DNA of 64,000 nucleotides, taken from positions 1 to 64,000 of the forward strand of contig CBDCDZ010000004.1 in NCBI GenBank assembly GCA_965215565.1, written 5' to 3'. Shown one piece after another: positions 7,118 to 34,332 of the stretch. Each line of letters opens with the position of its first letter. Within the stretch, counting starts at the first letter, position 1. A program made the position numbers and the translations under genes. Origin of the DNA: Trueperaceae bacterium. GTDB taxonomy: Bacteria > Deinococcota > Deinococci > Deinococcales > Trueperaceae. A model generated the notes under the pieces. That model did no database searches. It saw nothing but the letters and a program-made list of their open reading frames with translations, and was not told the origin of the DNA.

Positions 7118-8110
7118 CTAAGCGGGCACGGGGGTAGGCTCGAGCCGCTTCACAATATCGTCCATCGCCTTTTGCGCGTGAACGAGTCCGTTCTCAATAA
7201 ATACATCGCTGGTGCGCTTACCAAACCCGGCTGAACCGATGAAGTAGAGTCCGGGAACGTTGCTCTCTAAGGTCTCTTCGTCTAGGTTGACCGAGCCGTC
7301 TTCCGGGTTGAAGTTGACGCCTAAGCCGTCCACCATCTCGGGCGCAGCGTAGTAGCCCGTCAGCGCGAAGGTCATGTCAGTCGGGATGGAGAAAGTTTCC
7401 CCCTCTTGCTCCACGATAACCTCGGTGGGCGTGATCTCTTTTGCAACCGCACCTAAGTGCAAGTCGATGCTGCCCTCTTTAATGCGGTTTTCTAGGTCCG
7501 GGCGAATCCAGTACTTGAGCGAGTGGCGGAAGTCGTCGCCCCGGTGCACCATCGTCACCTTTGCGCCTGCGCGGAAAAGGTCAAGTGCAGCGTCGGCAGC
7601 GCTAGAGCCCGCACCGATGATGGTGACGTTGCGCCGCCAAAAAGGGTGCGCTTCGGTAAAGTAGTGCGAGACATGCTCCTGCTCTTCGCCGGGAATATCG
7701 AGCAGCTTGGGGTTTTCAAAGTACCCCGTCGCAACAGCGACTTTACGCGCGGCAATCTGCTCAGCCGGACGCCTATCCGGTCGTAGGGTCAAGGCGAAAC
7801 CCTGCGGCGTGCGCTGCATGTCGGTGACGCGGGTGTAGAGCCGCACGTTCAGGTCTTCGTTGTGCGCAACCTTGCGGTAGTAATCCAAAGCCTCTTTGCG
7901 CGTCGGCTTGGTACCCGCCGTCACCATCGGGTGGTTGCCGACTTCTAGTCTATCTGCAGTCGTGAAAAACGTGACGTAAGTAGGCCAGTGGTAAATCGCG
8001 TCCGCGACGCAGCCCGCTTCGATAAGAACGTAGGAAAGCCCCGCTCGTTTCGCGCGAATTGCCGCTTCTAAACCGACAGGGCCAGCGCCGATAATGGCTA
8101 AATCAAACAT
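7118..8110 (-). CDS. ypdA: YpdA-family putative bacillithiol disulfide reductase
   Basis: GAGPVG, YHWPTYVTFFTT, KPTRKEALDYYR, HYFTEAHPF, VFIENG. Confidence 0.85.
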   Translation of the reverse strand: MFDLAIIGAGPVGLEAAIRAKRAGLSYVLIEAGCVADAIYHWPTYVTFFTTADRLEVGNHPMVTAGTKPTRKEALDYYRKVAHNEDLNVRLYTRVTDMQRTPQGFALTLRPDRRPAEQIAARKVAVATGYFENPKLLDIPGEEQEHVSHYFTEAHPFWRRNVTIIGAGSSAADAALDLFRAGAKVTMVHRGDDFRHSLKYWIRPDLENRIKEGSIDLHLGAVAKEITPTEVIVEQEGETFSIPTDMTFALTGYYAAPEMVDGLGVNFNPEDGSVNLDEETLESNVPGLYFIGSAGFGKRTSDVFIENGLVHAQKAMDDIVKRLEPTPVPA

Positions 8111-8228
8111 CTTTGTATGGTAGCAAAAAGCCGCTCAGAGTGGCATGGGAGGGCTTACACTTGTGAAAAGCATCTCAGCCAGTCAGCCGGTCAGCATTTC
8201 AGCCGGTCAAAGGAAAAGCGAACGCTGC

Positions 8229-8876
8229 TCACGCTTGACTACTCGGGCAATAAGGACTGAGCGTACACGCTCCACAGTCTGGATTTCTCGCCAAACAAAC
8301 CCTGCGTCCGTGAAAGATGAGCGCATTGTGCAGAAATATCCAACTTTCTTCGGGAAAGAGGTCCTCTAACGCATCCTGGACCTTGTCAGGATTTGTCTCT
8401 TTCGTGAAGCTTAGCCGCCGCGCCAAACGCCCCACATGCGTATCCACCGCCACCGCCGGACGCCCAAAAGCGTTCGCAAGAACGACGGACGCCGTTTTTC
8501 TGCCTACACCAGGCAAGCCCAGCATATCGCCAAAGTCTTCGGGAACTTCACCTGCAAAGTCTTCGGTGAGCTTTCTTGCGGTGGCGACGCAGTTTTTTGC
8601 CTTATTGCGGTAGAGACCGATAGTCTTGATGTAAGGGATGAGGTCTTCGGGTTCTGCCTGCGCCATCATTTGTGCGTCGGGGTAGCGCTCAAAAAGCGCG
8701 GGCGTCGCGGCGTTGACACTTTTGTCTGTCGCTTGGGCGGAGAGAATCGTCGAGATGAGGAGTTCGAAGGGGCTGCGGTGGCTGAGTTCGGTCTTGGCTT
8801 CGGGATAGAGGGCGCGGAGTTCGCGTAAAACGTGCTCGGCACGCTCGAGCGTCTTCTTTTTGGACTCGCGGGGCAT
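8229..8876 (-). CDS. nth: Endonuclease III
   Basis: LSAQATD, HhH LPGVGRKTA, VDTHV and 4Fe-4S motif C-x6-C-x2-C-x5-C. Confidence 0.95.
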   Translation of the reverse strand: MPRESKKKTLERAEHVLRELRALYPEAKTELSHRSPFELLISTILSAQATDKSVNAATPALFERYPDAQMMAQAEPEDLIPYIKTIGLYRNKAKNCVATARKLTEDFAGEVPEDFGDMLGLPGVGRKTASVVLANAFGRPAVAVDTHVGRLARRLSFTKETNPDKVQDALEDLFPEESWIFLHNALIFHGRRVCLARNPDCGACTLSPYCPSSQA

Positions 8877-8915
8877 AGCTATATCCTAACCTTCTACCTC
8901 TTATAGACTGTAGAG

Positions 8916-9539
8916 ATGTCAGTTTCAGAATTACCGGAAGTAAAGGTAGAGCAGGAAAAACCCACCTTCGAACGCGCGGGCGATTTGCGTGAGTGGGTTT
9001 GGGCGACGCTCATGAAAGAGCGGCAAGTAGCCTATCCGCTGCCGCCACGCGGCCATCATCCGAACTTTCGAGGAACAGGTGAGGCGGCGGTGCGGCTGGT
9101 GGGGCATTTGCTCGAGCACACTCACCTCAACCCCGGCGACACCGTCATCAGCTATCCCGACTACGTCCTCAAACCCCTACGCAGAGACCTCTTGGAAGCA
9201 GGAGTCAACGTCGTCGTCCCCGCCAAATACGGCAGCGGCTACCGCTTTTTAGAGGCTCAGAAGGTACCGGCTAAGGGGGGCTCGAGCATCGCGGGCGCAG
9301 AGCGGTACGGCGACCTCATCACGGTACTCCCAAAATTGAGTATGGCCTTTCTCGCTTGCACCGCAGTGAGCGAACAGGGTGAAGTCTTAGACAAAGGTTA
9401 CGGCTTTCGTTTACCTGAAGACCTCGGCCCACTGCCCAGAGCGACGCTGGCCCACCCACTTCAGCGCTTTAAGACCTTACCTGAGAAGACAGATTCTGTG
9501 AGCTTTTATGCTACGCCCAGCGAAGTCTGGCACAAGTAA
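8916..9539 (+). CDS. 5-formyltetrahydrofolate cyclo-ligase-like protein
   Basis: LREWVW..PLPPRGHHPNFRG, KGYGF, HPLQ, ATP resemble the MTHFSD/archaeal-type family. Confidence 0.6.
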   Translation: MSVSELPEVKVEQEKPTFERAGDLREWVWATLMKERQVAYPLPPRGHHPNFRGTGEAAVRLVGHLLEHTHLNPGDTVISYPDYVLKPLRRDLLEAGVNVVVPAKYGSGYRFLEAQKVPAKGGSSIAGAERYGDLITVLPKLSMAFLACTAVSEQGEVLDKGYGFRLPEDLGPLPRATLAHPLQRFKTLPEKTDSVSFYATPSEVWHK

Positions 9540-9608
9540 GGAATTTGCCAGCACCCTCACGCATAGGTCTCTAAACTGAACCTAGAATTCCGTGTCCTAA
9601 GGAGACCT

Positions 9609-10838
9609 ATGCCAGCATACGAATACAAAGCGAGAGACCGCACCGGAAAGGTCATTACCGCCTCGATGGAGGCCGCGTCACAACGCGACGTCGCTGCCGC
9701 TCTGCGCGATAAAGGGCTGATTCCCACCGAAATCAAAGTGCCTAAGGGCGGCCTCAACGCCGACATCAAACTGCCCGCTTGGTTAGATATCGGCAGCAAA
9801 CCCAACATGCGCGATGTGACGCTCTTTAGCCGTCAGTTCGCTACTGTGATCAACGCAGGTCTGCCCGTCGTGCAGTCCTTGTCCATCTTGCAAAAACAGG
9901 CGGAGAAGCAAGGACTTAAAGACGCGCTCAAGAAAATCCGCGAGGACGTCGAAACGGGGCAACCTCTCTCCGAAGCGTTGGCAAAGTTCCCCAGTATCTT
10001 CAACCGCCTCTACATCTACTTGGTACGCGCGGGTGAAGCCTCCGGTAATTTGGACGGCATCTTAGAGCGCATCGCGAGCTATCAGGAGAAGCAAGCAGCC
10101 TTGCGCGGTAAGCTCAAGAGTGCCATGACCTATCCTACCGTCGTCATGGTCATCGCCTTGGGCGTCACTTACTTCTTGCTCACTGGCATCGTGCCGCAGT
10201 TCGCGGGCATCCTCACGCAGCTAGGCGGCGACTTGCCGCTGATTACTCAAATTTTGATGAATATTAGCGACTTTCTGGTCAATCAGTGGTATCTCATGCC
10301 CATCATTATCGGGGGTCTCGTTTTCGGTGTCGGCTTCGCTTACCGTACAGACAAGGGGCGACACATTATTGACCGCCTCCTCCTCAAGATGCCCATCGTC
10401 GGCAACTTGGTGCAAAAAACTGCTATCGCCAGCTTTTCAAACACTTTTGGATTGCTGCTCAAAAGCGGCGTCAATATCATCGAGGCGATTGAGATTACGA
10501 AGGGAACAGCGGGCAACGTCATCGTCGAAGACGTACTCGATGACGCCAAACAAGCTGTGCAGCGCGGCGAGCAGATCAGCGCCACGCTCGTTGACCACCC
10601 CACCGTATTCCCGCCGCTAGTTAGCTCGATGATCGCCATTGGCGAGGAAACGGGCGCGGTTGACGGCATGTTGGAGAAAATCGCTTCGTTTTATGAGCGA
10701 GAGGTCAATGAAGCGGTTGAGGGCTTAACTGCGGCGCTCGAGCCGATGCTCATCGTCTTCTTGGGCGGTGTGGTTGGTTTTATCGTCGCGGGTATGTTCT
10801 TGCCAATGTTCGCAATTATCGGGCAGCTCAGCGGCTAA
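9609..10838 (+). CDS. pilC: Type IV pilus inner-membrane platform protein (GspF/PilC family)
   Basis: FSRQFATVINAGLP, AGEASGNLD, AMTYP, IGEETGAVD, LEP. Confidence 0.95.
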   Translation: MPAYEYKARDRTGKVITASMEAASQRDVAAALRDKGLIPTEIKVPKGGLNADIKLPAWLDIGSKPNMRDVTLFSRQFATVINAGLPVVQSLSILQKQAEKQGLKDALKKIREDVETGQPLSEALAKFPSIFNRLYIYLVRAGEASGNLDGILERIASYQEKQAALRGKLKSAMTYPTVVMVIALGVTYFLLTGIVPQFAGILTQLGGDLPLITQILMNISDFLVNQWYLMPIIIGGLVFGVGFAYRTDKGRHIIDRLLLKMPIVGNLVQKTAIASFSNTFGLLLKSGVNIIEAIEITKGTAGNVIVEDVLDDAKQAVQRGEQISATLVDHPTVFPPLVSSMIAIGEETGAVDGMLEKIASFYEREVNEAVEGLTAALEPMLIVFLGGVVGFIVAGMFLPMFAIIGQLSG

Positions 10839-20420: not shown

Positions 20421-21257
20421 ATGAATGAAACAGCGGCTCGAACCCCAAAACAAGCCGAGCAAAACAGGCGCTTCGGTGTCGAACTCGCTCGCGCCTTCGG
20501 CGGCGCGATCATCTTCGCACTACTATGCTAATGACCGCCGAGATGTGGGCGCTGGGCTTCTACATCGACCGCTTCCGTCTAGCGCTCTTGCTCCTGCTCT
20601 CGCTGCCGCTGCTGATGGCCCTCAACTACTTCATCGGCTTCAGGGAGACCTTTCGCTGGCGCGACGACCTAGCCGACACGGGCGTCGCTTGGGCGGTCGG
20701 GTTCGCCTCGTCAGCGGCGCTGCTGCTGCTCTTTTCGGTACTCGAGGTCGGCATGAACCTGAGCGAGATCGTTGGTAAAGTCGCCCTCCAAGCGGTGCTC
20801 GCTAGTATCGGAGCGGCGCTCGCGGTGAGCCAGTTGGGTGGCCGCGAGGAAGAGGAGACGGCGTCCCGGCGCGAGACAAGCTACCTGGGCGAACTCGTCA
20901 CAATGGTCACGGGCGCGCTCTTTTTAGCCCTCAATATCGCCCCAACTGAAGAGGTGGTGCGCATCGTCTACCAGTTCACGCCCTGGCACGCCCTCGTGCT
21001 CATCCTAACCTCGCTCCTCATCATGCACACCTTCGTCTACGGGGTAGGGTTTAAGGGGCAAGAGCCGGTGCCGCAGGGTGCACCCCTCTGGAGCGTCTTT
21101 CTGCGCTTTACGGTGGTCGGCTACGCGCTTGCGCTATTTATCAGTTTCTACGCCCTCTGGACCTTTGGGCGCGTGGACGGTATGGCCTTAAACCAGGCGC
21201 TCATGGCGATGCTGGTGCTCGGCTTCCCGGCGGCAGTCGGTGCGGCTCATCCTGTGA
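20421..21257 (+). pseudogene. TIGR02587-like integral membrane protein, frameshifted near 20520 and near 21243
   Basis: LARAFGGAIIFAL in one frame; MLMTAEMW, LNIAPTEEV, LGFPAAVGAA in another; expected RLIL-stop is out of frame. Confidence 0.65.
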
Positions 21258-21646
21258 GGCGGCCCCCGCAAACCCCCTCGCCCATAGAGTGGCTCGCCGT
21301 TGGACTCGGCGCGGCTTTAGTAGGCTTCGCAGTCGTATTTTTGCTGGTCCAGGCGTTCACGTCTCGAGACCAGAAACCGCCCGACCTCGTGCTCCAAGCT
21401 GGGCTACCTCAAGAGGTTCAAACAGGCTTTTACGTTCCCATTCGTATCAACAATCAGGGGGATGAGACGGCAGCCGACGTCGTCATCGAAGGAACGTTGG
21501 CGCAAAACGGCGCAGCCACCGAAACGAGCGAGTTCACCCTCGACTACGCCCCAGCTCACTCTGAACGGGAAGGCGGGCTCTTTTTCAGCCAGAATCCGCA
21601 GGGCTCTCAGCTCGAGCTGCGGGCAAAGGGCTACCAGGAGCCCTGA
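21254..21646 (+). CDS. TIGR02588-like membrane-anchored protein, read through from the upstream gene in this assembly
   Basis: IEW..single TM..PPDL, FYVP..NQGDETAADV.IEG, GGLFFSQNP, GYQEP; GTG start at 21254. Confidence 0.6.
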   Translation: MRRPPQTPSPIEWLAVGLGAALVGFAVVFLLVQAFTSRDQKPPDLVLQAGLPQEVQTGFYVPIRINNQGDETAADVVIEGTLAQNGAATETSEFTLDYAPAHSEREGGLFFSQNPQGSQLELRAKGYQEP

Positions 21647-21817: not shown

Positions 21818-22369
21818 TTGCACATCAGTTGGTTTAGGAATTCTGAGGCGAGTGCACGCGCCATCGACACCGTTGTCAATACGCTCGAGGATGCTAAAGG
21901 CATTGTCATCGACGTGCGTCATAACTGCGGCGGCGAAGACCGTGCGGGCCGGACTATAGCCAGTCTCTTTGTAGCCGAGCCACGCCCCTACATGAGCGTT
22001 GCGATGCGCAAGCTCGGTCAGCTTCTACCTGCCTTCGCAAAACCCGTGGCGTGGCAGCTGGAACCCTTAGGACCGAAGCAGTACACTGGCCCGATCGTTC
22101 TGCTCGTCAATGGCCGGTTAATCAGCGTAGCGGAGAACTTCGCGGTGGCGATGCGCGCCGCCCCACACGCTCTCATCATGGGCGAGATGACTGCGGGCAT
22201 GATGGCGGACACGGGAACCCAGCCGCTGCCGAACGGCTGGGAGGTGAGCGTGCCCGTCAACCAGTTCCGAGATGCGAACGGTATCTCGTGGGAAGGCGTC
22301 GACATCACACCGTTTTGTAGGTTAAAAACGACCGTGCCGACATCGAAGCGGGAAGCGACCGAGTTTTAG
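21818..22369 (+). pseudogene. S41-family peptidase C-terminal fragment
   Basis: IVIDVRHNCGG, SVAENFA, GEMTAG, WEGVDITP; N-terminal part missing. Confidence 0.75.
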
Positions 22370-22750
22370 AGACGGCCCTCGACTTCCTGCGCGTAGGTGC
22401 CGTCCAGCCCTGGGACCGGGCGGAGCAGAAGCCCACAACGCGGCTCCCTTCAGAATGAAGCAATACGTGGAGCTGCAAATCAATGTGGAACAGAACGTCG
22501 ACCCGCTTTGCCTCGTACGGGCCATGAGGTGCTCTGCACGTCACACCACCCGTTTACTCGTGCCGAACGGCTGAACGCAACTCTAACCTAATAGAGTTGC
22601 GCGCGTCAGCCGCACAAAGACCTAGAAGTAGCACGTTAGAAAATTCAACGATTCGAACCCGTATCCTGCAAGGACCGTCCGCTTATTCAAGGGGTGGGCA
22701 AGTCCCGATTGTATTCACCTTGCGGGGAGAGTAAAAAACGCGACCTCCGC

Positions 22751-24808
22751 TCAGCCTGAGACCGCCACCGGCACCGACTCGGTAGGGCGGTAGCGTGCCA
22801 CCATCCGCGACCAAATCAGGTTGCTCTGGATGCGCGCCTCCAGCACGTCGAGGTAACGCTCGAGCCCCTCATCCGCCGGGCCGAACGAAGGTCGCTTCAG
22901 CCGCTCCTCGCGGAAGCCCGCGACAGCCTGGTGGTACATCTGCGCCGCCCGGCTCATGGACTCGGGAAGGGAACCCCCATATTCTCTCTGCAAAGCGAGC
23001 ACGAGGTTGTGGACGTCGTCGTGGTGCAGCTCTTTATTGAGTGAAAAGAGGTCGTTCGCCCAGCACACCGCCTGATCCGCGAGCAGATTCAGCCGGGTCA
23101 CGGCTTGATGCTCGCGCACTTCCTGTGGCAAGCAGACGCCGTCGGCGAGTTCGATAAAGGCGGTGTCGATCGAGAGGCCACCGGTCACAGGACGCAGGAT
23201 CAAGTAGCTCGCCAGCTCGGGCGGGCTATTCCGAGTCCGGTTCGACGCTTCCCAGACCGTCGCCGCCATGAACGCTTTAACGGTTGCGCAGAAGCGGGCA
23301 AACCACTCGGGCGTTCCGTGCACACGCAGCCGCGCGCCCAAGTCGAAGAGGAGCTGCGCCACCGGTCCTTCGCGCTCGTCGGGCGTTGTCCCTGCCAAAA
23401 CCACATTCAAGCGGGCGTTCATTCTTTGTAAACGTGCGGGGTCGTGACCCATTGTGCCCTCGTCGCAGAGGTCGTCGTAAAAGAACATCCACAAATACCA
23501 GTCGGCGATGAGTTGCTTGACCTCTTCGCTCGCCTCCTGATGGATGGTGCTCGCTAGATAGCCGGGGCGGATCGCGGCAACGAGGCGGTAGAGGTCGCGC
23601 TTCGAGGCGATACCGAAACGCGCCAGCCACCTCACCGTGCCCCGGTCGAGGCGTTCGCTCAGCTCGGCGTTGCAGACGTCGTCAACATCGGACAGTGGCG
23701 TCAGTTCGGGCAGCGGTAGACGCTCGACATACTTTCTTGTAAACGCCTCGACGCGGTTGCGCCCGCCCGTCTTGCTCGCGTAGAGGGCTTCGTCGGCGCG
23801 TCTAATCAACGTATTCGGCGTGTCCCCGGCCTGATAACTTGCGACGCCGAAGCTGGCCGTAATGCCCCCTATCTCGAAGGGGTAGTCCGCCACTTGGCGG
23901 CGCAGGCGTTCGGCTAAGACGCTCGCGCCTTCAAGTCCGGTGTGAGACGCGAGGATGAGAAACTCCTCACCGCCCCAGCGTCCGAACAGGTCGGTGTCGC
24001 GCACGAACGTCGCTGCCAGGTCCGCGACCTTGATGAGTACCTTGTCCCCCGCCTCATGACCGTGAACATCGTTGACCTGTTTGAAACGGTCGATATCTAC
24101 GAGGATGAGCGAGAAGGGGTTGCCGTAGCGCTCGCCCGCCGCGAACGCTTGGGCGAGGGAAGACTCCAGAGCGCGGCGGTTCGGCTTGCCTGTCAGCGGG
24201 TCGAGGTAAGCGAGTCGCTCCATCTGAGCGAGCTGCGCCTGTAACGCTGCGATCTTCGTGCGCGAGAAGGAGTAGCTGTAGAGCACCCCCAAGTAGAGGG
24301 CGTAACTGAGATAGAACTCGGTCAACCCGCTAGGCAGTACGATCGGAACGCCCCCGGAGCCTGCAAAGGCAGCCGCGAGCCCTGCTGCCAGCGCGAGCGT
24401 ATAGATCGACGCTGTGTAGCGCAGCGCCGAGCGTTGCTCGAACAGCACATACGCCAGGATGAAGATAGTTGGCGACCAGACGTAGAGCTGGACGAGCTCC
24501 TGTTGGGCACTTGCCTGAGCATAACTCAGATAAACGCTGGTCGCGAACTTGCCAATAAAAACAGCCGCCAGCACGCTGTAGACGAAATTCTCGATGTAAA
24601 GAAGCGCGGGCTTGCGGAGGTGAATGGCGAGGCTCGCAGCGAGTAGAAGAACCGCTAGAATGGGTAAGACGAGCGCGTCGAAGGTGGCGGGCTGCCCGTC
24701 TTGGTAATCAACCCAGTAAGTTGTCAAAACAGCGATACTCAGTAGGGGTAGTACAACGCGATAAATCTGTCGTTTGATTGTCTGGTGGGTGGGTGAGGTG
24801 AGGTCCAT
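22751..24808 (-). CDS. Multi-TM diguanylate cyclase (GGEEF) fused to a class I terpene synthase domain
   Basis: About six TM helices; DPLTG.NRR, DIDRFKQVND.HGH..GD, RDTD I-site, RWGGEEF; then FYDDLCDE (DDxxD), RPVTGG, NDLFSLNKE (NSE/DTE) and WSRMVARY (WxxxxxRY). Confidence 0.9.
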   Translation of the reverse strand: MDLTSPTHQTIKRQIYRVVLPLLSIAVLTTYWVDYQDGQPATFDALVLPILAVLLLAASLAIHLRKPALLYIENFVYSVLAAVFIGKFATSVYLSYAQASAQQELVQLYVWSPTIFILAYVLFEQRSALRYTASIYTLALAAGLAAAFAGSGGVPIVLPSGLTEFYLSYALYLGVLYSYSFSRTKIAALQAQLAQMERLAYLDPLTGKPNRRALESSLAQAFAAGERYGNPFSLILVDIDRFKQVNDVHGHEAGDKVLIKVADLAATFVRDTDLFGRWGGEEFLILASHTGLEGASVLAERLRRQVADYPFEIGGITASFGVASYQAGDTPNTLIRRADEALYASKTGGRNRVEAFTRKYVERLPLPELTPLSDVDDVCNAELSERLDRGTVRWLARFGIASKRDLYRLVAAIRPGYLASTIHQEASEEVKQLIADWYLWMFFYDDLCDEGTMGHDPARLQRMNARLNVVLAGTTPDEREGPVAQLLFDLGARLRVHGTPEWFARFCATVKAFMAATVWEASNRTRNSPPELASYLILRPVTGGLSIDTAFIELADGVCLPQEVREHQAVTRLNLLADQAVCWANDLFSLNKELHHDDVHNLVLALQREYGGSLPESMSRAAQMYHQAVAGFREERLKRPSFGPADEGLERYLDVLEARIQSNLIWSRMVARYRPTESVPVAVSG

Positions 24809-24902
24809 CTAAGCTCACGCTATCAAGCGAGAATACCCCGGAGCGTTAAATTTTGCGCACCCTCGTCCTTGGGTGCATGGTAGAAGCGCGAGGGGAGGAC
24901 GG

Positions 24903-26267
24903 ATGCTCAGATCAAAACGACAAGGCAGCGTGCAAGGACCGAGGGGCGTTCGCGCACTCGGGGTACTACCTCGACTGCTCAGACACGACATGCTCAGCGT
25001 GCTCGAAGAGGCTAGAGAAGGCTACGGCGACCTCTTTAAGCTCCGCGTCGGCCCCGCCTCGCTGGTCATCGCGAGCCACCCGGAGCACGCTCGGCACATC
25101 TTACAAACTGCAAGCGTGAACTACACCAAAGGGCGGGTCTACGATCCCGGTCGCCGCTGGATGATTGGCGACGGGCTCATCGCCAGCACGGGTGAGCATT
25201 GGCTGCGCCAACGGCGCATGATGCAGCCGCACTTCCACCGCCAGCAGTTGGCGGGTCTCACGACCCTGATGACGGACGCGATTGGTGAAGCGCTGGCGAG
25301 TTGGGAGCCTCGAGAAGAGGGAGCGACGCTCCACCTCGACAAGGCGACCGCGCGGCTCTCCATCAAGGTCATCACGCGCACGCTCTTCGGCAGCGGAACG
25401 TTGAGCGAGGCGGAGATGGACGAGGTCGGAGCGGCGTTTTTGACGTTGATGCGGCAACTCACCCCGCGTCTCTTTCTCTACTTTCTACCGGAACAGCTCC
25501 CGCTACCCGGTGACCGAGCGCTCCGCAGAGTGAGACGAACGGTTGACGCGGCGATCTATAAACTCATCGCGGAGCGGCGGCGTACACCCGGCGGGAACGA
25601 CCTGCTCGCCATGCTCATGGGCGCGGCAGACGGGGAAGGAGCGGGTGAAGGGCGCGGCATGAGTGACGCGCAGTTGCGCAACGAAGTCGCCACCCTGTTC
25701 ATCGCTGGATATGACACCGTTTCGACGGGTCTGACCTGGACCTGGCACCTCCTCAGTGAGCATCCCAGGGTGTTGGCGCGTCTCAAGGAGGAGATCGAGA
25801 CAGCGTTAGGAAAACGAACGCCGACCTTCGCTGACTTGGGAGCGCTGCCCTACACGCGCAACGTGTTGCGGGAGAGCCTGCGCGTGCGTCCGCCCGTCGG
25901 TATGGTGCCCCGCACGCTCAAAGCGGACGATGAACTGGATGGACACCTTCTGCGTAAAGGCACAACGGTGTGGCTCTATATCTACGGCGTTCATCGCCAC
26001 GCCGACTTCTGGGACGCCCCGGAGGACTTCGTACCGGAGCGCTTCGAGTCCGACCAGAAACACCGCTTTGCCTATCTTCCCTTTATCGCCGGACCTCGGC
26101 AGTGTATCGGCAACGAATTCGCCATGACGGAGATGGCGCTGGCGCTGGTGATGACCGTTCAGCGCTACGAGGTTACAACTCTGAACGACCCGCCTGCACT
26201 ACCACTACTCACTACGGTGCTCAAGCCTCGGTACGGGGTGCAGGCGAGGGTGCGCTCGCGAGCATGA
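24903..26267 (+). CDS. Cytochrome P450
   Basis: AGYDT I-helix, ESLR (ExxR), PERF, heme motif FIAGPRQCIG; ggagg RBS before ATG 24903. Confidence 0.95.
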   Translation: MLRSKRQGSVQGPRGVRALGVLPRLLRHDMLSVLEEAREGYGDLFKLRVGPASLVIASHPEHARHILQTASVNYTKGRVYDPGRRWMIGDGLIASTGEHWLRQRRMMQPHFHRQQLAGLTTLMTDAIGEALASWEPREEGATLHLDKATARLSIKVITRTLFGSGTLSEAEMDEVGAAFLTLMRQLTPRLFLYFLPEQLPLPGDRALRRVRRTVDAAIYKLIAERRRTPGGNDLLAMLMGAADGEGAGEGRGMSDAQLRNEVATLFIAGYDTVSTGLTWTWHLLSEHPRVLARLKEEIETALGKRTPTFADLGALPYTRNVLRESLRVRPPVGMVPRTLKADDELDGHLLRKGTTVWLYIYGVHRHADFWDAPEDFVPERFESDQKHRFAYLPFIAGPRQCIGNEFAMTEMALALVMTVQRYEVTTLNDPPALPLLTTVLKPRYGVQARVRSRA

Positions 26268-26624: not shown

Positions 26625-28421
26625 GTGAAAAAGCACACTCACGATGATGTGCGTTTAGAAGCGCTTCGCCGTACGCGGTTACTCGATACGCCACCCGAGG
26701 TCGCCTTTGATCGCCTTACTTCGCTGGCGTGTATGCTTCTCAAAGCTCCCGTAGCGCTCATCTCACTTATCGACTCAGACCGTCAGTTTTTCAAAAGTGC
26801 GAGCGGTCTTGCAGAACCGTGGGCGAACCTCCGAGAAGCACCCTTGTCTGGTGCATTTTGTAAACAGGTTGTCAACCGTGAAGCGCCGCTCGTCGTCGAG
26901 AATACTGCCGCACCTACGTGGCTTAACTTTAGCGTTGCAGCCGAAGCACTTGATATCAGGGCGTACCTCGGCACACCCCTCTTCACGCCTGAAGGTCAGC
27001 CTATCGGGACGCTATGCGCGGTTGATCAGCAACCACGAGCCTGGTCAGAGCGTGATCTCTGTGTGCTGAGCGAACTAGCGGACATCGCGATGTCTGAAGT
27101 TGCGACGCGGCGCTACCGGCTCGAGCGTGACGCCGCTGAACGCGCACTTCACCACCTCGCTTATCACGATGCGTTGACGGGTCTCCCCAACCGCGCTTTT
27201 TTGCTGCCCTATCTAAATCGCGCGGCGGAGCAAGGTAAAGCGCCCACGATACTCTTTCTCGACATCGACGACTTCAAGCTGCTCAACGATTCGTTAGGGC
27301 ACGCCTTTGGCGATCAGGTCCTGCAGCACGTAGCCCAGCGGCTGCAAGGTGCCGTTCAAGAGAACGATGTGGTCGCTCGACTTGGTGGTGACGAGTTTGT
27401 GGTTGTGCTCGAATCTTCCTCCCGAGTAGAAGGCACCGCTGCCGCTACCGAAACCTTACTTACGGCCGTCGGAGCGCCCTTCTCGGTAGCGGGCCGCGTG
27501 GTCAAGCTTGCAGCGAGCGTCGGGGTCGCCACGTTTCTCAGCGGCGAAAGCGCTGAAGAGGTATTGCGCCGAGCTGACCTTGCAATGTACCAGGCTAAGC
27601 GCCGAGGCAAAGGAACCTTGAGTTTTTTCACCCCTCAGCTCGACGACAGGGCGATGGAGCGTTTAACCCTCGCGACAGACTTTCAGGATGCGCTCGCTCA
27701 GCAGCAGTTCATCCTTCACTACCAACCCCGCGTGAGGGTGATCGGCAACGAATGTGTAGGGGTTGAGGCGTTAGTGCGCTGGCAACATCCGAGGCGCGGC
27801 TTGCTGCTACCTGATACGTTTGTGCCAGCAGCCGAGGAGTGCGGACTGATCTATGACCTCGGCCAGGTTGTGTTGGAGCAGGCGTGTCAGAGGCTAGCCG
27901 ATTGGCGAAGTCGGGGTCTCGCTGTGGCTATGTCGCTTAACGTATCAGTCAATCAACTGCTGCATCCCGGCTTCTTGCGCGACGTGGTGCAAGCTGTCGC
28001 GCGTTATCAGGTCGGCGCGGGAGCGCTCGAGTTCGAAATCACCGAGCGCGTCTTTATGCAAAGTAGCGAGGTGTTAGAAACGCTGCGCGCTATTAAAGCT
28101 CTAGGTATCAAGCTTTCGCTTGATGATTTTGGCACGGGTTACTCGTCCCTCGCCGCTCTAAAACAACTCCCCTTTGATACGCTTAAGCTTGACCGAAGCT
28201 TCCTCAACGACGCCAAACCCGCTTCGCCCAAAGATATCGCAATCATGCGCGCAGTGACCGCGTTAGCTCAGTCACTAGACCTTACGGTGGTTGCTGAGGG
28301 CGTTGAAACGCCTTGGCAGCGCGACTTTGTGTTGGATGCCGGATGCGAAGAGGCTCAGGGATTTTTCTATGGTCGCGCTGTTGAGGCGGCAGTGCTCGAG
28401 CGGCACTACCTGCTACTCTAA
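26625..28421 (+). CDS. GAF-GGDEF-EAL c-di-GMP signalling protein
   Basis: RLEAL..LLDTPPE.FDRLT GAF, RLGGDEF, EALVRW, EITE, DDFGTGYSS, EGVE, QGF. Confidence 0.93.
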   Translation: MKKHTHDDVRLEALRRTRLLDTPPEVAFDRLTSLACMLLKAPVALISLIDSDRQFFKSASGLAEPWANLREAPLSGAFCKQVVNREAPLVVENTAAPTWLNFSVAAEALDIRAYLGTPLFTPEGQPIGTLCAVDQQPRAWSERDLCVLSELADIAMSEVATRRYRLERDAAERALHHLAYHDALTGLPNRAFLLPYLNRAAEQGKAPTILFLDIDDFKLLNDSLGHAFGDQVLQHVAQRLQGAVQENDVVARLGGDEFVVVLESSSRVEGTAAATETLLTAVGAPFSVAGRVVKLAASVGVATFLSGESAEEVLRRADLAMYQAKRRGKGTLSFFTPQLDDRAMERLTLATDFQDALAQQQFILHYQPRVRVIGNECVGVEALVRWQHPRRGLLLPDTFVPAAEECGLIYDLGQVVLEQACQRLADWRSRGLAVAMSLNVSVNQLLHPGFLRDVVQAVARYQVGAGALEFEITERVFMQSSEVLETLRAIKALGIKLSLDDFGTGYSSLAALKQLPFDTLKLDRSFLNDAKPASPKDIAIMRAVTALAQSLDLTVVAEGVETPWQRDFVLDAGCEEAQGFFYGRAVEAAVLERHYLLL

Positions 28422-31479: not shown

Positions 31480-32850
31480 TAGGGGAAATGCACTACCTTC
31501 TGCTATAAGGTAAGCGATGGTCACGAACATCCTAGAAGCGTTTGCAGAGCTGCCCGATCCAAGAAGAGAGCACCCTGTCAAGCTGCATAAGCTCATCGAC
31601 ATTGTGGTTATAGCCGTGTGCGCGGTAATTGCTAAAGCTGAGACGTGGGAAGAGATAGCGGATTATGGCGAACTCAAAGAGGACTTCTTGCGGCAGTTTT
31701 TAGAGTTACCCTACGGTGTTCCTTCACACGACACCTTCAACCGTGTTTTTTCTCGGCTCGACCCAGCGGCTTGGCAGACGTGCTTCACGAACTGGATGCG
31801 CTCGGTAAGTCAACTTAGCAAAGAGAAACTCATCAGCATTGACGGTAAGGTGCTACGTGGGGAACTAGGTCCAACGGGCCGCTAGCGGGAGCGGTCCACG
31901 CGACGCTTTGCCCGTTCTATAGCAATTAACATAAGTACTGATTGGAATAGCGCAAGTATCATTCTCAAATGTGCGTGCTGCACGGTGTTCTACATCGTGA
32001 GAGCGTCGCAAACCAAATGATACTTGCTATATTTCTAAATCTAAGGGAGAAGGTAAGGGCGAAGAGAAACGAGCCGCCCTCTCACTCCTGAGTGCTTGGG
32101 CACTCAAGAACGAACTGGTTTTAGCGCAGTTAGCCCTTGAAGAACACGCCAACGAACTTAGCCTCATTCCTGAGCTATTGGGCTTACTCGGTCTAGAAGG
32201 AGCAAGCGTTAGCATCGACGCAGCAGGCTGCCATAAAGAGGTTGCTACGCAGATTGTAGAGCAAGGCGGCAACTACGTACTCTCGCTCAAGGCGAATCAG
32301 GGCGTGCTTTTTGACGAAGTCAACTGGCTTTTCGAGTATCAGTTAGCTGAAGCTGTTGAAATGGACAAAAGCGAGACCTTTGACGTCGCTCACGAACGTC
32401 AAAAAACGCGTACCTGTTGGTTGATGAACGACCTGAGCTACTTCGAACAAGCAGCTTACAACTTGAACGGCTGGAAGCAGCTCAGCGCTGTCATCGTCGT
32501 TGAGAACCAGGTACTTCGGCAGGGCAAGCCCTCTACCAAGCGGCCTTTCTTCCTCACCCCACACAGCTTTAGCGCTGAAAAGGCGCTTACTAGAGTCAGA
32601 GCGCACTGGTCGATTGAAAACCAGCAGCACTACCCGCTTGACGTTCTCTTCCGTGAAGATGCTTCGCGTACCCGAAAGGGCTTTGCCGCTCAGAACTTAG
32701 CTGCGCTTAGACGTCTCGCACTCAACCTACTCAACCTCGACACCCAAACGCCCCGCTCTAAAAGACGCAAGCGCTTCAAGGCACTTCTCGGTGACCGTTA
32801 TCTCCTTGAACTACTCGGGCTCACTGAGGTTGCCTAATGCGTTTGCCCTA
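31480..32850 (+). mobile_element. ISAs1-family IS, transposase interrupted by a 172-bp nested insertion
   Basis: LPDPR, PSHDTF, IDGK, IDAAGCH, LKANQ, HWSIEN, LDV.FRED; ends taggggaaatgcacta / taatgcgtttgcccta; 9-bp target duplication GCGATGGTG (31471-31479, 32851-32859). Confidence 0.93.
31918..32031 (+). repeat. TATAGCA...TGCTATA MITE family, copy 3 (inside ISAs1)
   Basis: tatagcaa...ttgctata ends; close reverse-complement match to 50018-50132. Confidence 0.85.
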
Positions 32851-33018
32851 GCGATGGTGAGCATATCCAACTCAGCACCGAAAGGAACGGGTGTGCTGGA
32901 GTGTTGTGCAACAGACGCGCGCATTTCACGCAGAAGATTAAGAAAAGTGGCGAGCCTTCGGAGCTGTAGGCATGTTGAGCGCGTTGCTGCCTTGCCAGAA
33001 GGGTGTAATACTCGGCGT

Positions 33019-34332
33019 ATGCTCACGGATGAGATCACTTTCGCCCCCGCCGCCACCCTCGCTAGGGCGATAAGGCTCAAGGACCTCTCCTCCGTAGAGG
33101 TGGTCGAGGTCTACCTCAAGCGAATCGAGGTGGTGAATCCTAGCCTCAACGCCGTCGTGCAGCTCGCCGCGGAAGCCGCCCTGAGCAACGCGCGGCTGGC
33201 CGACGAAGCCCTCGCGCGAGGAGATACGACCGGCCCTTTGCACGGCGTCCCTTTTACCGTTAAAGACTGGCTCGAGACGAAGGGAGTGGTATGCACCGCG
33301 GGCGAAGAGAGGCACCGAAGGTACGTTCCGAAGCATGACGCCACCGCCGTGGCGCGGCTGCGCGAGGCCGGCGGCATCTTCCTCGGCAAGACCAACATTA
33401 CCGTCAACAACCCCGTCTACGGTCGCACCAATAACCCCTACAATCTGGCGTACACGCCAGCGGGCAGCAGCAGCGGCGAGGCGGCTATCATCGCGGCGGG
33501 CGGCTCACCTCTGGGGTTGGGCAGCGACTCGGGCGGGAGCATCCGCCAGCCCGCTCACAACTGCGGCGTCGCGGGGTTCAAGCCGAGCACGGGCAGGGTC
33601 CCCCTCACAGGGCATCTGCCGCGCATCAACCCCATGAGCGACCCCCGCACGACGATTGGACCGGTGGCGCGCTACGTAGAAGACCTGGCGCTCGCGCTGC
33701 CCGTCATCAGCGGCGTGGACTGGCAGGACGCCAGCGTCGTTCCCGTGCCGCTTGGCCACTGGCAGGACGTCGGGGTAGAGCGCCTGCGCGTGGCCTTCTA
33801 CACGAGACACGCGCACGCCGAGCCGACCCCGGAGACGGACGAGGTGGTGAGAAGGGCGGCGCGAGCCCTCGCCCGGTTAGGGCTCGAGATCGAGGAGGCG
33901 CGGCCCGAGCGGGTCGAGGAAGCGTACGCGATCACCCGCGCCTATTGGCAGCGGCCCGAGTCGGAATCGTGGGACGCGTGGGTACCCGACGGTGAGGCGA
34001 AGCTGAGTGGCGAGGAGGTCGAGCGGCACCTGTTCGAGTGGGACCGGTTCCGGCGCAGCCTCGTCCGCTTCATGGCGCACTACGACGTCATCTTGACGCC
34101 TGTCGCCGAAAAACCTGCCGTGCCCCACGGCGAGCCGGAAGGCGGCATCCCTTACACGCTGCCCTACAGCCTCACGGGCTACCCTTGCGCGGTGGTGCGC
34201 GGCGGCAGCTCGCCCGAGGGGCTGCCGATCGGGGTGCAGGTCGTGGCGAAGCCGTGGCGGGATGACGTGGCGCTCGCGGTCGCGCACCGTCTCGAGCAGG
34301 CTCTGGGGGGATACCGAAAGCCTGCGATCTAG
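33019..34332 (+). CDS. Amidase-signature family enzyme
   Basis: GPLHGVPFTVKD, AGSSSGEAA, GSDSGGSIRQP. Confidence 0.92.
   Translation: MLTDEITFAPAATLARAIRLKDLSSVEVVEVYLKRIEVVNPSLNAVVQLAAEAALSNARLADEALARGDTTGPLHGVPFTVKDWLETKGVVCTAGEERHRRYVPKHDATAVARLREAGGIFLGKTNITVNNPVYGRTNNPYNLAYTPAGSSSGEAAIIAAGGSPLGLGSDSGGSIRQPAHNCGVAGFKPSTGRVPLTGHLPRINPMSDPRTTIGPVARYVEDLALALPVISGVDWQDASVVPVPLGHWQDVGVERLRVAFYTRHAHAEPTPETDEVVRRAARALARLGLEIEEARPERVEEAYAITRAYWQRPESESWDAWVPDGEAKLSGEEVERHLFEWDRFRRSLVRFMAHYDVILTPVAEKPAVPHGEPEGGIPYTLPYSLTGYPCAVVRGGSSPEGLPIGVQVVAKPWRDDVALAVAHRLEQALGGYRKPAI

Follow-up and report, generated by a model that had tools for sequence, protein, structure and literature searches.

In the window, by which we mean the whole stretch of 64,000 nucleotides analysed here, one gene on the reverse strand encodes a protein in which a six-helix membrane domain, a helical stalk, a GGDEF domain and a class I terpene synthase follow one another in a single chain (Table 1). 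Re-translation gives an open reading frame that begins with ATG, has no internal stops and ends with a stop codon at 22751-22753. A preliminary description of the locus had proposed just such an uninterrupted frame of 685 residues, with about six transmembrane (TM) helices, a complete GGDEF domain carrying GGEEF and, at canonical spacing, RDTD, and a cyclase with four hallmarks (DDLCD, the R of RPVTGG, NDLFSLNKE and the RY of WSRMVARY). All of these features were recovered: AlphaFold2 and hydropathy agree on the six helices, every motif is present in the re-translated sequence, and the GGDEF and terpene synthase models of Pfam are both matched far above their cut-offs.

Table 1. Features of the fusion gene and its neighbours, with positions in the window and residue numbers of the fusion protein.
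Feature	Position	Strand	Basis and remarks
Fusion gene, 685 aa: 6TM domain, stalk, GGDEF domain, class I terpene synthase	22751..24808	-	ORF, Pfam, full-length homologues P0001-P0010
Six-TM membrane domain, residues 6-182	24263..24793	-	AlphaFold2 helices, hydropathy, fold search; fold may resemble 6TM of ImcA and membrane adenylyl cyclases
Stalk helix, residues 183-199	24212..24262	-	Helix 6 (160-201) extends into GGDEF domain; DgcB match
GGDEF diguanylate cyclase domain (putative), residues 200-356	23741..24211	-	Pfam, TIGR00254, PDB matches
I-site RDTD (RxxD), residues 270-273	23990..24001	-	Re-translation; RxxD in 33/33
A-site GGEEF, residues 279-283	23960..23974	-	Re-translation; 33/33 family sequences
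Junction TRKYVER, residues 357-363	23720..23740	-	Between last GGDEF strand and synthase N-terminal segment
Class I terpene synthase alpha domain (putative), residues 364-675	22784..23719	-	Pfam, phmmer, Foldseek
Aspartate-rich motif DDLCD, residues 445-449	23462..23476	-	Re-translation; DDxCD in 33/33
R539 of RPVTGG, presumed diphosphate-sensor Arg	23192..23194	-	Re-translation; R in 32/33
NSE triad NDLFSLNKE, residues 585-593	23030..23056	-	Re-translation; NDxxSLxKE in 33/33
C-terminal RY pair, residues 672-673	22790..22795	-	Re-translation; present in 31/33
Cytochrome P450, divergently transcribed	24873..26267	+	Start probably ATG 24903; best NCBIfam models pentalenene oxygenase, albaflavenone monooxygenase
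GAF-GGDEF-EAL protein	26625..28421	+	Downstream of P450; Pfam

Far from being unique to the window, the architecture recurs in other genomes as a small conserved family, and the 33 sequences of our conservation set, which fall into 28 clusters at 90% identity, all carry GGEEF, RxxD, DxDxFKxxND, DDxCD and NDxxSLxKE. Within the phylum the one-frame fusion was found in 20 genomes that belong to at least six genera and two families, and a twenty-first copy is cut by contig ends. Looked at from the side of the synthase, 21 of the 22 genomes in the phylum scan that have a synthase of this type have it in fused form; the lone stand-alone synthase is that of genome G328, whose 12.5-kb contig carries no GGDEF match. 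A split form made up of adjacent genes was not seen anywhere in the phylum scan, and all 20 complete genomic copies are intact. On a larger scale the fusion family is rare, with 10 full-length clusters in 5.8 billion proteins and six members, five full-length and one N-truncated, among the best 150 matches from 1.84 billion representatives. We did not read the long stop-to-stop frames (868-1070 aa) seen in some high-GC genomes as evidence of additional N-terminal domains; the 918-aa frame of genome G012 was found to hold no extra N-terminal Pfam domain.

An unusual fusion of this kind may of course be the product of a lost stop codon or a misassembly, or else a recent and functionless fusion in a decaying gene. 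We found nothing in support of such a reading and consider its probability to be practically nil. Public contigs run unbroken through the junction, at about nt 23655-23740, with neither gaps nor joints. The preliminary description had asked for reads to be mapped over the junction; the contigs of two runs, X1 and X2, cross it without indels: record 4 of X1 (23508-23801) has 0 differences, record 3 of X1 has 24 differences and 0 gaps, and record 11 of X2 (23216-23803) has 44 differences and 0 gaps. The X3 run contained only 0.10 of the words, and none of its contigs spans the junction. Since X1 and X2 are one sample, and perhaps the very sample behind the window's assembly, the stronger proof is the presence of the fusion in 20 separately assembled genomes. 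The bridging contigs and these 20 genomes together rule out a misassembly or a lost stop, and the fusion is not an assembly artefact. A comparison of three congeners gave dN/dS values of 0.12-0.25 for each of the TM, GGDEF and synthase parts, which indicates purifying selection in every domain and rules out a pseudogene.

The two halves of the fusion also have a common history. A single clade unites the synthase halves (SH-aLRT 85), and the only row within it labelled as stand-alone is a fragment beginning in the tail of a GGDEF domain; the TM-GGDEF halves likewise group together (support 99). Because both halves are monophyletic, the fusion arose once according to these trees, and repeated, independent fusions were rejected on the same grounds. 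What the gene specifies is a genuine membrane protein of three modules and single origin, maintained by selection in Deinococcales-type bacteria.

AlphaFold2 places the six N-terminal helices at residues 6-36, 42-64, 69-97, 99-122, 125-150 and 160-201, the last of them being prolonged as a stalk into the GGDEF domain; when folded alone, the TM domain reaches a pLDDT of 93.1. In the best 19-residue window the hydropathy of helices 1-5 is 1.5-2.6 and that of helix 6 is 0.8, and the Lys and Arg residues of the domain are confined to the N-terminal segment and the loops at 63-70, 121-127 and 182-200, a distribution that fits an N-in, C-in topology. The TM part alone gave no Pfam family, only sub-threshold noise (Ceramidase, E 0.066), and a search with residues 1-195 at E up to 10 found none of the MASE models of Pfam (MASE1-11); the look-alikes retrieved by a language model, among them clusters of MASE2, 6, 7 and 11 at 0.89-0.91, are leads only. 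In the fold search, the three best matches among 48,161 chains are all 6TM domains of nucleotide cyclases, namely AC9 (6r3q, Z 14.6), ImcA (8wcn, Z 13.1) and AC5 (8sl3, Z 12.8), aligned over 180-185 of 200 residues with the next unrelated row at Z 10.4, although the identity is 9-12% and helical bundles can reach a Z of about 13 by common packing. The stalk together with the GGDEF domain resembles the coiled-coil-GGDEF of DgcB (6ttr; TM-score 0.90 by Foldseek). Stand-alone 6TM-GGDEF proteins make up a large family, of which the TM-GGDEF half as a whole is an ordinary member, and the six-TM part would, on this kinship, be more than an anchor-like feature.

The GGDEF domain matches PF00990 of Pfam over residues 200-352 (E 1.6e-43, 148.7 bits against a cut-off of 23.8) and TIGR00254 of NCBIfam (145.1 bits against 37.4), and diguanylate cyclases in the PDB match it down to 2.6e-34. 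RxxD inhibitory sites are found in many GGDEF cyclases, not in all; here RDTD is followed by LFGRW and then by GGEEF, so that the I-site lies five residues before the A-site. The residues for metal, guanine and phosphate, whose roles we assume by analogy to PleD, are present as well (DIDRFKQVND at 238-247, and K346 to R352) and are kept in all 33 family members. The domain is apparently an intact-looking, putative c-di-GMP synthase in which both the A-site and the I-site are complete. One could also take it to be mainly a regulatory or dimerisation module, where c-di-GMP at the RxxD site or GTP at the A-site would switch the synthase, and the terpene would be the output. Receptor-type GGDEF domains such as PelD, PopA and PdeA are known, and both the invariant I-site and the position of the domain as a transducer between sensor and synthase would suit such a role. 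The known receptors are, however, degenerate at the A-site, whereas in this family the A-site and the substrate and metal residues are just as invariant as RxxD, and the TM-GGDEF half has its ordinary place in the stand-alone family mentioned above. We see only a slim chance for this reading.

For the C-terminal domain, the Pfam match is to Terpene_syn_C_2 (PF19086), over residues 436-629 (E 1.4e-44, 152.7 bits against a cut-off of 23.7). The preliminary description had placed it with the pentalenene-synthase-type cyclases; it proved to have no special closeness to pentalenene synthase: its nearest relative of known structure is the (+)-T-muurolol synthase of Roseiflexus castenholzii (9hqd; phmmer 1.4e-54, aligned over 385-678), and the match to pentalenene synthase is far weaker (8.7e-17). 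By Foldseek the domain superimposes on T-muurolol synthase with an E of 1.6e-19, a TM-score of 0.90 and 34% identity, and on more than 20 solved class I synthases with TM-scores of 0.79-0.90; its fold is that of an ordinary closed-pocket synthase. In the phmmer and homologue alignments, the synthase part begins about where stand-alone synthases begin. In bacterial cyclases, by a spacing rule, the sensor Arg precedes the NSE triad by 46 residues and the RY pair follows it at a distance of about 80. In the fusion protein R539, which we take to be the diphosphate sensor, is 46 residues from N585, and the RY pair is 87 residues past N585. R539 is replaced by His in the congener G001, and the two sequences that lack RY both have a frameshifted or lost C-terminus. 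None of the NCBIfam terpene synthase equivalogs was reached; the best was selinadiene synthase with 132 bits against 450, and those for 4-epi-cubebol, isoafricanol, delta-cadinene, epi-isozizaene and pentalenene all stayed below their cut-offs. Because no equivalog cut-off was reached and the identity to T-muurolol synthase is too low, the product is not assignable and naming one would be a guess. The C-terminal domain is, to all appearances, an intact-looking and putative sesquiterpene-type class I synthase. According to the phylum scan it is the genome's sole synthase of its type, and two polyprenyl synthases encoded in the genome could supply the substrate.

The P450 encoded next to the fusion gene scores 231.7 and 213 bits with the models for pentalenene oxygenase and albaflavenone monooxygenase, both under the equivalog cut-offs. 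It adjoins the fusion gene in all three genomes of the genus (the window, G001 and G002) and at no other locus; the GAF-GGDEF-EAL gene is missing from the corresponding place in G001 and G002. GGDEF or EAL neighbours are recurring, not universal, companions of the fusion gene. They occur at 9 of 20 loci: five genomes have a PAS-GGDEF-EAL gene directly upstream in the same orientation, and at four further loci the neighbours are GGDEF or EAL genes of other kinds. Outside the window's genus, no consistent terpene-tailoring neighbour was found at the 20 loci. Between positions 18000 and 32000 of the window no Rfam family of any kind matched at E up to 0.1, hence no c-di-GMP riboswitch either, and the scan for promoters and terminators returned fewer sites than shuffled sequence yields.

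This signalling context without terpene tailoring would fit a reading in which the synthase domain serves as the input of the protein: it would bind a prenyl diphosphate or PPi-Mg, gauge the isoprenoid supply and tune the cyclase, with turnover incidental or lost. The exchange of R539 for His in G001 points in the same direction, and the conserved motifs are also those required just for diphosphate-Mg binding. However, all catalytic hallmarks are invariant, beyond the binding ones; the domain has its ordinary closed pocket and its likeness to a T-muurolol synthase that is active; the pairing with a sesquiterpene-type P450 in three genomes implies a product; and in class I synthases it is binding in the closed site that triggers ionisation. 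We regard a purely sensory synthase as distinctly unlikely.

It is worth looking closely at the junction between the two enzymes. From R352 to L369 it measures 16-18 residues in all 33 sequences, over a range of 36-100% identity, while its sequence is variable and its dN/dS among the three congeners, 0.16-0.89, is higher than that of the domains. In the full-length AlphaFold2 model of the monomer, which has a pTM of 0.51, the pLDDT drops below 70 at residues 351-380 and below 50 at 358-362, and no defined arrangement of the synthase packed on the GGDEF domain is predicted. A complex prediction of GGDEF (196-357) against synthase (362-685) from a 10-row alignment gave a score of 0.00 against a mark of 0.32 and is silent either way on an interface.

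The best explanation for these findings, to which we give about an even chance, is a three-module enzyme in which the syntheses of c-di-GMP and of a terpene are physically coupled under one membrane input. The fusion protein would be a homodimer, by analogy to ImcA and the membrane adenylyl cyclases. Its pair of 6TM domains would read a membrane or lipid cue and pass it on through the register of the stalk, and c-di-GMP would be made from two GTP, with the RxxD site allowing feedback of the product on the cyclase. At the inner face of the membrane the C-terminal domain would turn farnesyl diphosphate into a cadinane- or muurolane-like sesquiterpene, which in the window's genus may be oxidised by the divergent P450. 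The N-terminal capping segment of the synthase would be tethered to the GGDEF domain by a short link of constant length, and from such a tether we infer that the two syntheses are mechanically or sterically linked, beyond their co-expression. A single input could in this way control two outputs, c-di-GMP as the signal inside the cell and a lipophilic product that can diffuse.

The sole observation bearing on the coupling is the length of the junction, and it is here that the coupled enzyme must be weighed against mere co-localisation. Both enzymes may be active with no influence on each other, and the fusion would then provide equal dosage, co-expression, a membrane address and the release of a hydrophobic product at the bilayer. 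The poorly conserved sequence of the junction, with its higher dN/dS, would be expected of such an arrangement, as would the low-confidence junction and the lack of predicted packing between the domains in the AlphaFold2 model. A passive, flexible tether should nevertheless vary in length, and this one does not; moreover, every complete copy of the fusion is intact and no split form has been seen, the one stand-alone synthase being that of G328 with no GGDEF match on its contig. Co-localisation alone therefore seems to us a real contender, though rather an unlikely one. The coupled enzyme, for its part, has several observations counting against it: c-di-GMP neighbours at 9 of 20 loci fit a signalling role as well as a biosynthetic one, G001 has His at position 539, the pTM of the model is 0.51, NCBIfam assigns no product, and the Z of about 13 for the 6TM match is possible from bundle packing.

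The coupled enzyme may be taken one step further, to a self-contained terpene-to-c-di-GMP device in which the protein's own sesquiterpene, or that of its neighbours, enters the membrane and binds the protein's own six-TM receptor; we think of this as a long shot. Excerpts of two papers report the TM domains of adenylyl cyclases as lipid receptors (PMC11606603, PMC12505454), and it is from the apparent likeness in fold that a terpene receptor is suggested here. The polar, membrane-embedded residues K87, Q107 and E164 are specific to the fused clade, occurring in 23%, 0% and 6% of 66 stand-alone relatives, and judging by the helix boundaries only, they might form a binding pocket on the outer side of the membrane interior. 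c-di-GMP would then report isoprenoid flux or the terpene level nearby directly, in an autocrine or quorum-type loop.

GGDEF domains are normally the last module of their proteins, or are followed by EAL or HD-GYP (phosphodiesterase) domains, and bacterial terpene synthases are almost always soluble and stand-alone. Full-text literature searches turned up no description of a TM-GGDEF-terpene synthase architecture, in agreement with the preliminary description, nor of the physical tie that it makes between terpene formation and a second messenger of bacterial lifestyle. There are, however, several systems that share part of the plan. Class I cyclases with a second catalytic domain in the same chain are found in the alpha-alpha didomain of geosmin synthase and in fungal prenyltransferase-cyclase chimeras such as fusicoccadiene synthase; the partners in these enzymes share a pathway, whereas the fusion pairs its cyclase with a signalling enzyme whose substrate is unrelated. 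T-muurolol synthase (9hqd, 9hqm and others), the protein that residues 364-678 resemble most in sequence and fold, has the same layout of DDxxD, NSE and RY, but it is a soluble, stand-alone protein of about 330 aa. The ammonium-transporter-GGDEF fusions (8qj3, 8qpf) also join a non-signalling membrane module to a GGDEF cyclase in one chain. Their extra module is N-terminal and plausibly a sensor, while in our fusion the extra enzyme follows the GGDEF domain.

On the membrane side, the closest parallel is ImcA of Pseudomonas aeruginosa (8wcn), which is described in excerpts of its report as a homodimeric six-TM GGDEF protein that needs its TM part for activity (PMC10904736). Residues 1-356 of the fusion follow the same plan, with a stalk leading from the six TM helices to the GGDEF domain; the TM model superimposes on 8wcn_B with an rmsd of 3.6 Å over 183 residues, and the GGDEF domains match in sequence at 3.6e-20. 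The identity of the TM parts is just 9%, however, and ImcA ends after its GGDEF domain, has no terpene synthase and is controlled by a partner protein, IsmP. Membrane adenylyl cyclases similarly combine a six-TM bundle and a helical stalk with a nucleotide cyclase, and Rv1625c of M. tuberculosis (7yzi, Z 9.9) joins AC9 and AC5 among the fold matches; they differ from the fusion in having a class III catalytic fold in place of GGDEF, no sequence similarity to it and no appended metabolic enzyme. A second-messenger module is also physically joined with a class I terpene cyclase in the family 2 encapsulins, which the excerpted account presents as cNMP-binding shells with terpene-cyclase cargo (PMC8346489). 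On that account the shell encloses a cargo enzyme, as opposed to the covalent fusion with a c-di-GMP synthase seen here. The fused synthase is not itself a member of the encapsulin cargo family (NF041168), with 85.5 bits against a cut-off of 1200.

The fusion makes it possible to ask directly whether a second-messenger circuit includes terpene production, or whether the relation runs the other way. It is c-di-GMP that governs the switch from motile to sessile life, and to our knowledge the control of bacterial terpene synthases and the purpose of their volatile products are mostly unknown. Nor is the phylum known to us for terpenes, carotenoids apart, and the product of the fused synthase may for this reason be new. 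For structural work, the fusion offers a membrane-anchored cyclase of defined geometry. As a minor observation, the sequence P0125 is labelled by NCBI as 'diguanylate cyclase, partial [Deinococcales bacterium]'.

The fusion gene is a single open reading frame of 685 aa (22751-24808 of the window, minus strand), in which Pfam places a GGDEF domain at residues 200-352 (E 1.6e-43) and a Terpene_syn_C_2 domain at residues 436-629 (E 1.4e-44), both matches being more than 120 bits over their cut-offs. Of the NCBIfam models, TIGR00254 matches the GGDEF half at 145 bits (cut-off 37), and the selinadiene, 4-epi-cubebol, isoafricanol and delta-cadinene synthase models match the synthase half at 118-132 bits, all far under their equivalog cut-offs. 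Each motif named in the preliminary description was re-translated from the window, and every one was found in its place. A full-length AlphaFold2 model built on a 10-row alignment (mean pLDDT 84.2) has six N-terminal helices, of which the sixth (160-201) forms a stalk that leads into the GGDEF fold, and residues 381-669 make up an all-helical domain; in between, the model is poorly defined, with pLDDT 64-69 in the blocks at residues 351-380 and values below 50 at 358-362. Six transmembrane (TM) helices with both termini in the cytoplasm are consistent with the hydropathy and the K/R distribution, helix 6 being weak in hydrophobicity. The protein is anchored in the membrane and has three sites, all complete: the cyclase site, the I-site and the class I synthase site.

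Coordinates of motifs in the fusion protein (by re-translation) and of genes and open reading frames at its own and related loci
Feature	Position	Remark
GGEEF (A-site)	residues 279-283	
RDTD (I-site)	residues 270-273	five residues upstream of GGEEF
DDLCD	residues 445-449	
R539	residue 539	N585 exactly 46 residues later
NDLFSLNKE	residues 585-593	
RY	residues 672-673	
Fusion gene with Arg539 to His	L092 (G001:C1) 7968-10025 (-)	
Large PAS-GGDEF-EAL gene	L104 5741-8818	
Large PAS-GGDEF-EAL gene	L111 5863-8547	
Large PAS-GGDEF-EAL gene	L108 11739-14564	
Large PAS-GGDEF-EAL gene	L109 11942-14995	
Large PAS-GGDEF-EAL gene	L106 27-1256	
6TM-GGDEF paralogue	G000:C4:3533230-3534159	own genome
6TM-GGDEF paralogue	G000:C4:671678-672526	own genome
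6TM-GGDEF paralogue	G000:C4:3220717-3221796	own genome
DUF2391 protein	window 20525-21646 (+)	Pfam 1e-76, residues 1-241
Peptidase_S41 ORF	window 21818-22369 (+)	183 aa, TTG start
Partial DDE transposase	window 32178-32837 (+)	profile positions 76-200 of 200
Amidase ORF	window 32791-34332	

The continuity of the junction, which the preliminary description had singled out as a point to check, is borne out by contigs from two public sequencing runs of one sample (X1 and X2), which bridge the GGDEF-synthase junction with no gap or joint; one is identical to the window and two come from a variant about 92% identical. It should be pointed out that this sample may itself be the source of the window assembly, and the comparative evidence is therefore decisive. 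The same architecture does occur as a one-frame fusion in relatives of the phylum. Among 5.8 billion protein clusters, a word-index search retrieved ten full-length fusion proteins of 668-695 aa, 37-100% identical at a query cover of at least 89% and matched by both Pfam families. Of the best 150 matches in a profile search through 1.84 billion representatives, five are full-length members and one is truncated at the N-terminus. Whole-genome searches found the fusion, with its domains confirmed, in seven of 61 relative genomes: the window's own (G000), two of the same genus (G001 and G002), and G012, G034, G005 and G057. The G057 gene is cut by two contig ends and the other six are in one frame; G035, flagged as unpublished, lacks the fusion and counts only towards the denominator of this set. 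When 364 genomes of the phylum were scanned for the synthase domain, 22 had a match, which lies in an open frame of at least 667 aa, or in the split G057 gene, in 21 of them; the last (G328) has a stand-alone, 30%-identical gene with a 315-aa frame. At each of 14 newly fetched loci, tblastn with the window protein gave a single HSP in a single frame, starting no later than residue 38 and ending at residue 674 or beyond, except in G121 (11-602). The early doubt that relatives might show a stop and a start between the domains is answered by these copies, which run in one frame through the junction. As a separate observation, the two runs hold a second variant of the whole gene across window positions 22500-25100, about 92% identical (records 3 and 11, for example, have 24 and 44 differences and no gaps), so two related fusion-carrying strains or species coexist in the sample.

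Conservation was followed in 33 sequences, which fall into 28 clusters at 90% identity. GGEEF, RxxD, the DxDxFKxxND segment, DDxCD and NDxxSLxKE are each kept in all 33, R539 in 32 (His in G001), and RY in 31; the latter is missing from the database protein P0139, which has a C-terminal frameshift when compared with its 90%-identical genome copy, and from G121, which has lost its C-terminus. Comparison of the three species in the window's genus gives a dN/dS of 0.13-0.22 in the TM part, 0.12-0.25 in the GGDEF domain and 0.13-0.17 in the synthase, and the gene is under purifying selection. Two alternatives concern the roles of the domains: that the synthase domain serves as a prenyl-diphosphate gauge, which we hold to be quite improbable, and that the GGDEF domain is a receptor or scaffold, which seems to us very doubtful. 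By its motifs the GGDEF domain is an ordinary cyclase with an I-site, apparently active. The His copy in G001 reads HPVTGG with its remaining catalytic motifs intact; the substitution may reflect either an error in sequencing or a genuinely attenuated synthase.

The origin of the fusion was approached from both halves. In a maximum likelihood tree of the synthase domain (19 fused rows and 25 taken as stand-alone; the fragments P0121, P0122 and P0239 and 14 later-fetched genome copies were left out), all fused rows fall together in a clade (SH-aLRT 85) that lies within the stand-alone synthases. The only 'stand-alone' row inside it, P0141, is a fragment whose N-terminal end is the final helix and strand of a GGDEF domain. 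One protein of the clade carries the NCBI label 'diguanylate cyclase, partial [Deinococcales bacterium]'. In a FastTree of the TM-GGDEF part (14 fused and 66 stand-alone rows, with N-truncated rows, near-duplicates, G012 and later genome copies left out), a branch supported at 99 has the fused rows together on one side. From these trees we conclude that the fusion arose once, when a stand-alone sesquiterpene-type synthase was appended to a member of a large 6TM-GGDEF family. This family has at least several dozen members, as many proteins of 350-400 aa are found among the best 150 matches, at profile positions 12-360 and about 280-350 bits. The fusion is patchily distributed (12 carriers among 127 genomes in one family, 9 among 125 in another, none among 111 across the other four) and the tree clades follow genera, a pattern that fits vertical descent with loss. 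Outside the window, the own genome holds several stand-alone 6TM-GGDEF paralogues with 33-37% identity across residues 8-358; with 19 or more GGDEF matches scored there, the family is expanded.

Both domains belong to textbook families. What is new is the covalent union of GGDEF and terpene synthase under a membrane sensor, together with the fact that the synthase exists in this phylum practically only in fused form. The preliminary description knew of no such fusion, and full-text searches of open-access papers found none described among the matches listed. The fusion should be of high interest to the terpene and c-di-GMP fields alike.

The nearest solved relative of the synthase is the (+)-T-muurolol synthase of Roseiflexus castenholzii (phmmer 1.4e-54, residues 385-678), which resembles the domain here with a Foldseek TM of 0.90 at 34% identity; next come the 1-epi-cubenol, 10-epi-cubebol and selinadiene synthases. 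Since all of these are FPP cyclases, our best guess for the product is a cadinane/muurolane-type sesquiterpene, with no equivalog threshold reached. The own genome has two polyprenyl synthases, and a genome scan with the synthase domain found no second synthase of this type in it. The motif set and the fold, together with the P450 partner, suggest that cyclisation of FPP at the membrane face would yield a sesquiterpene. Geosmin synthases with two domains are known, and a four-domain chain would be unusual; in the database protein P0161 (1617 aa), Pfam finds Terpene_syn_C_2 as four separate domains (593 bits over 4 stretches).

On the cyclase side, the stalk and GGDEF domain superpose on the coiled-coil-GGDEF part of DgcB (Foldseek TM 0.90) and also on phytochrome-linked cyclases. 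The TM domain matches no Pfam family; a language model gives MASE-type sensors as look-alikes, at the level of a lead. When it was folded alone from a 73-row alignment (pLDDT 93.1, pTM 0.85; a confident model) and searched against 48,161 representative chains, its top three hits were all six-TM domains, from adenylyl cyclase 9 (Z 14.6), ImcA of P. aeruginosa (13.1) and adenylyl cyclase 5 (12.8). M. tuberculosis Rv1625c ranked sixth (Z 9.9) and the top unrelated row reached 10.4. Helical bundles can attain Z values like those of the top three through common packing, and the match of the predicted domain to adenylyl cyclases and ImcA is good but not proof. ImcA is described as a six-TM GGDEF homodimer whose TM domain is needed for activity (PMC10904736), and a lipid-receptor function has been reported for the TM domains of adenylyl cyclases (PMC11606603, PMC12505454). 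By analogy with ImcA and membrane cyclases, the fusion protein would be a dimer in which the pair of 6TM domains and their stalks set the productive encounter of two GGDEF domains. A bolder and improbable reading is that the protein senses its own lipophilic product through a lipid-receptor-like TM domain. Core TM residues shared by the fused clade and the 66 stand-alone relatives are E73 (92%), W111 (80%) and P113 (74%); K87, Q107 and E164 are near-invariant in the fused clade and rare outside it, occurring in 23%, 0% and 6% of those relatives. The database protein P0140 (1274 aa) contains a tandem array of seven GGDEF stretches (797 bits in Pfam).

Stand-alone synthases start at profile positions 358-370, and the first residue of T-muurolol synthase falls at about residue 364 of the fusion protein, so the synthase begins some seven residues past the last GGDEF strand. 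R352 marks the end of the GGDEF domain and L369 belongs to the 'PxL' in the N-terminal segment of the synthase; the distance between them is 17 residues in 26 of 33 sequences, 18 in four and 16 in three, and the sequence in between is variable. Where the geometry of a spacer matters, a constant length and an unconstrained sequence are to be expected. This length is the only pointer here that the two enzymes may be more than co-expressed; plain co-localisation of the two, the reading it speaks against, we consider unlikely. The junction suggests a coupling in which the state of the GGDEF pair would constrain the N-terminal capping segment of the synthase, or the reverse.

Upstream of the fusion gene, 64-94 nt off, is a divergent P450, which scores best against the NCBIfam models for pentalenene oxygenase and albaflavenone monooxygenase; it adjoins the fusion in all three genomes of the genus and at none of 17 other loci. 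In the window it is followed by a GAF-GGDEF-EAL gene, which is not kept at the G001 or G002 loci. The recurring neighbour at related loci is c-di-GMP machinery. Five genomes, all of one genus, have a large PAS-GGDEF-EAL gene directly upstream, on the same strand and about 65 nt away; it is probably co-transcribed with the fusion gene, and this would place a synthase/phosphodiesterase pair around the terpene module. G012 has a PAS-GAF-GGDEF-EAL gene convergent with the fusion gene, and a 6TM-type GGDEF gene (G078) and a TPR-GGDEF gene (G093) lie nearby in two others. The association, seen at nine of 20 loci with the window included, is suggestive only, because these loci represent few independent lineages and such genomes hold at least 20 GGDEF genes. 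Reductases (SDR, Zn-ADH, aldo-keto reductase) adjoin some copies, inconsistently.

Downstream in the window is a convergent S41-peptidase fragment, an ORF with the Peptidase_S41 catalytic domain alone (profile 6-161 of 165) and no N-terminal or PDZ part, which may be a truncated remnant. The partial DDE transposase overlaps the start of the amidase ORF. The DUF2391 integral membrane protein carries a further C-terminal extension of about 130 residues without a family match.
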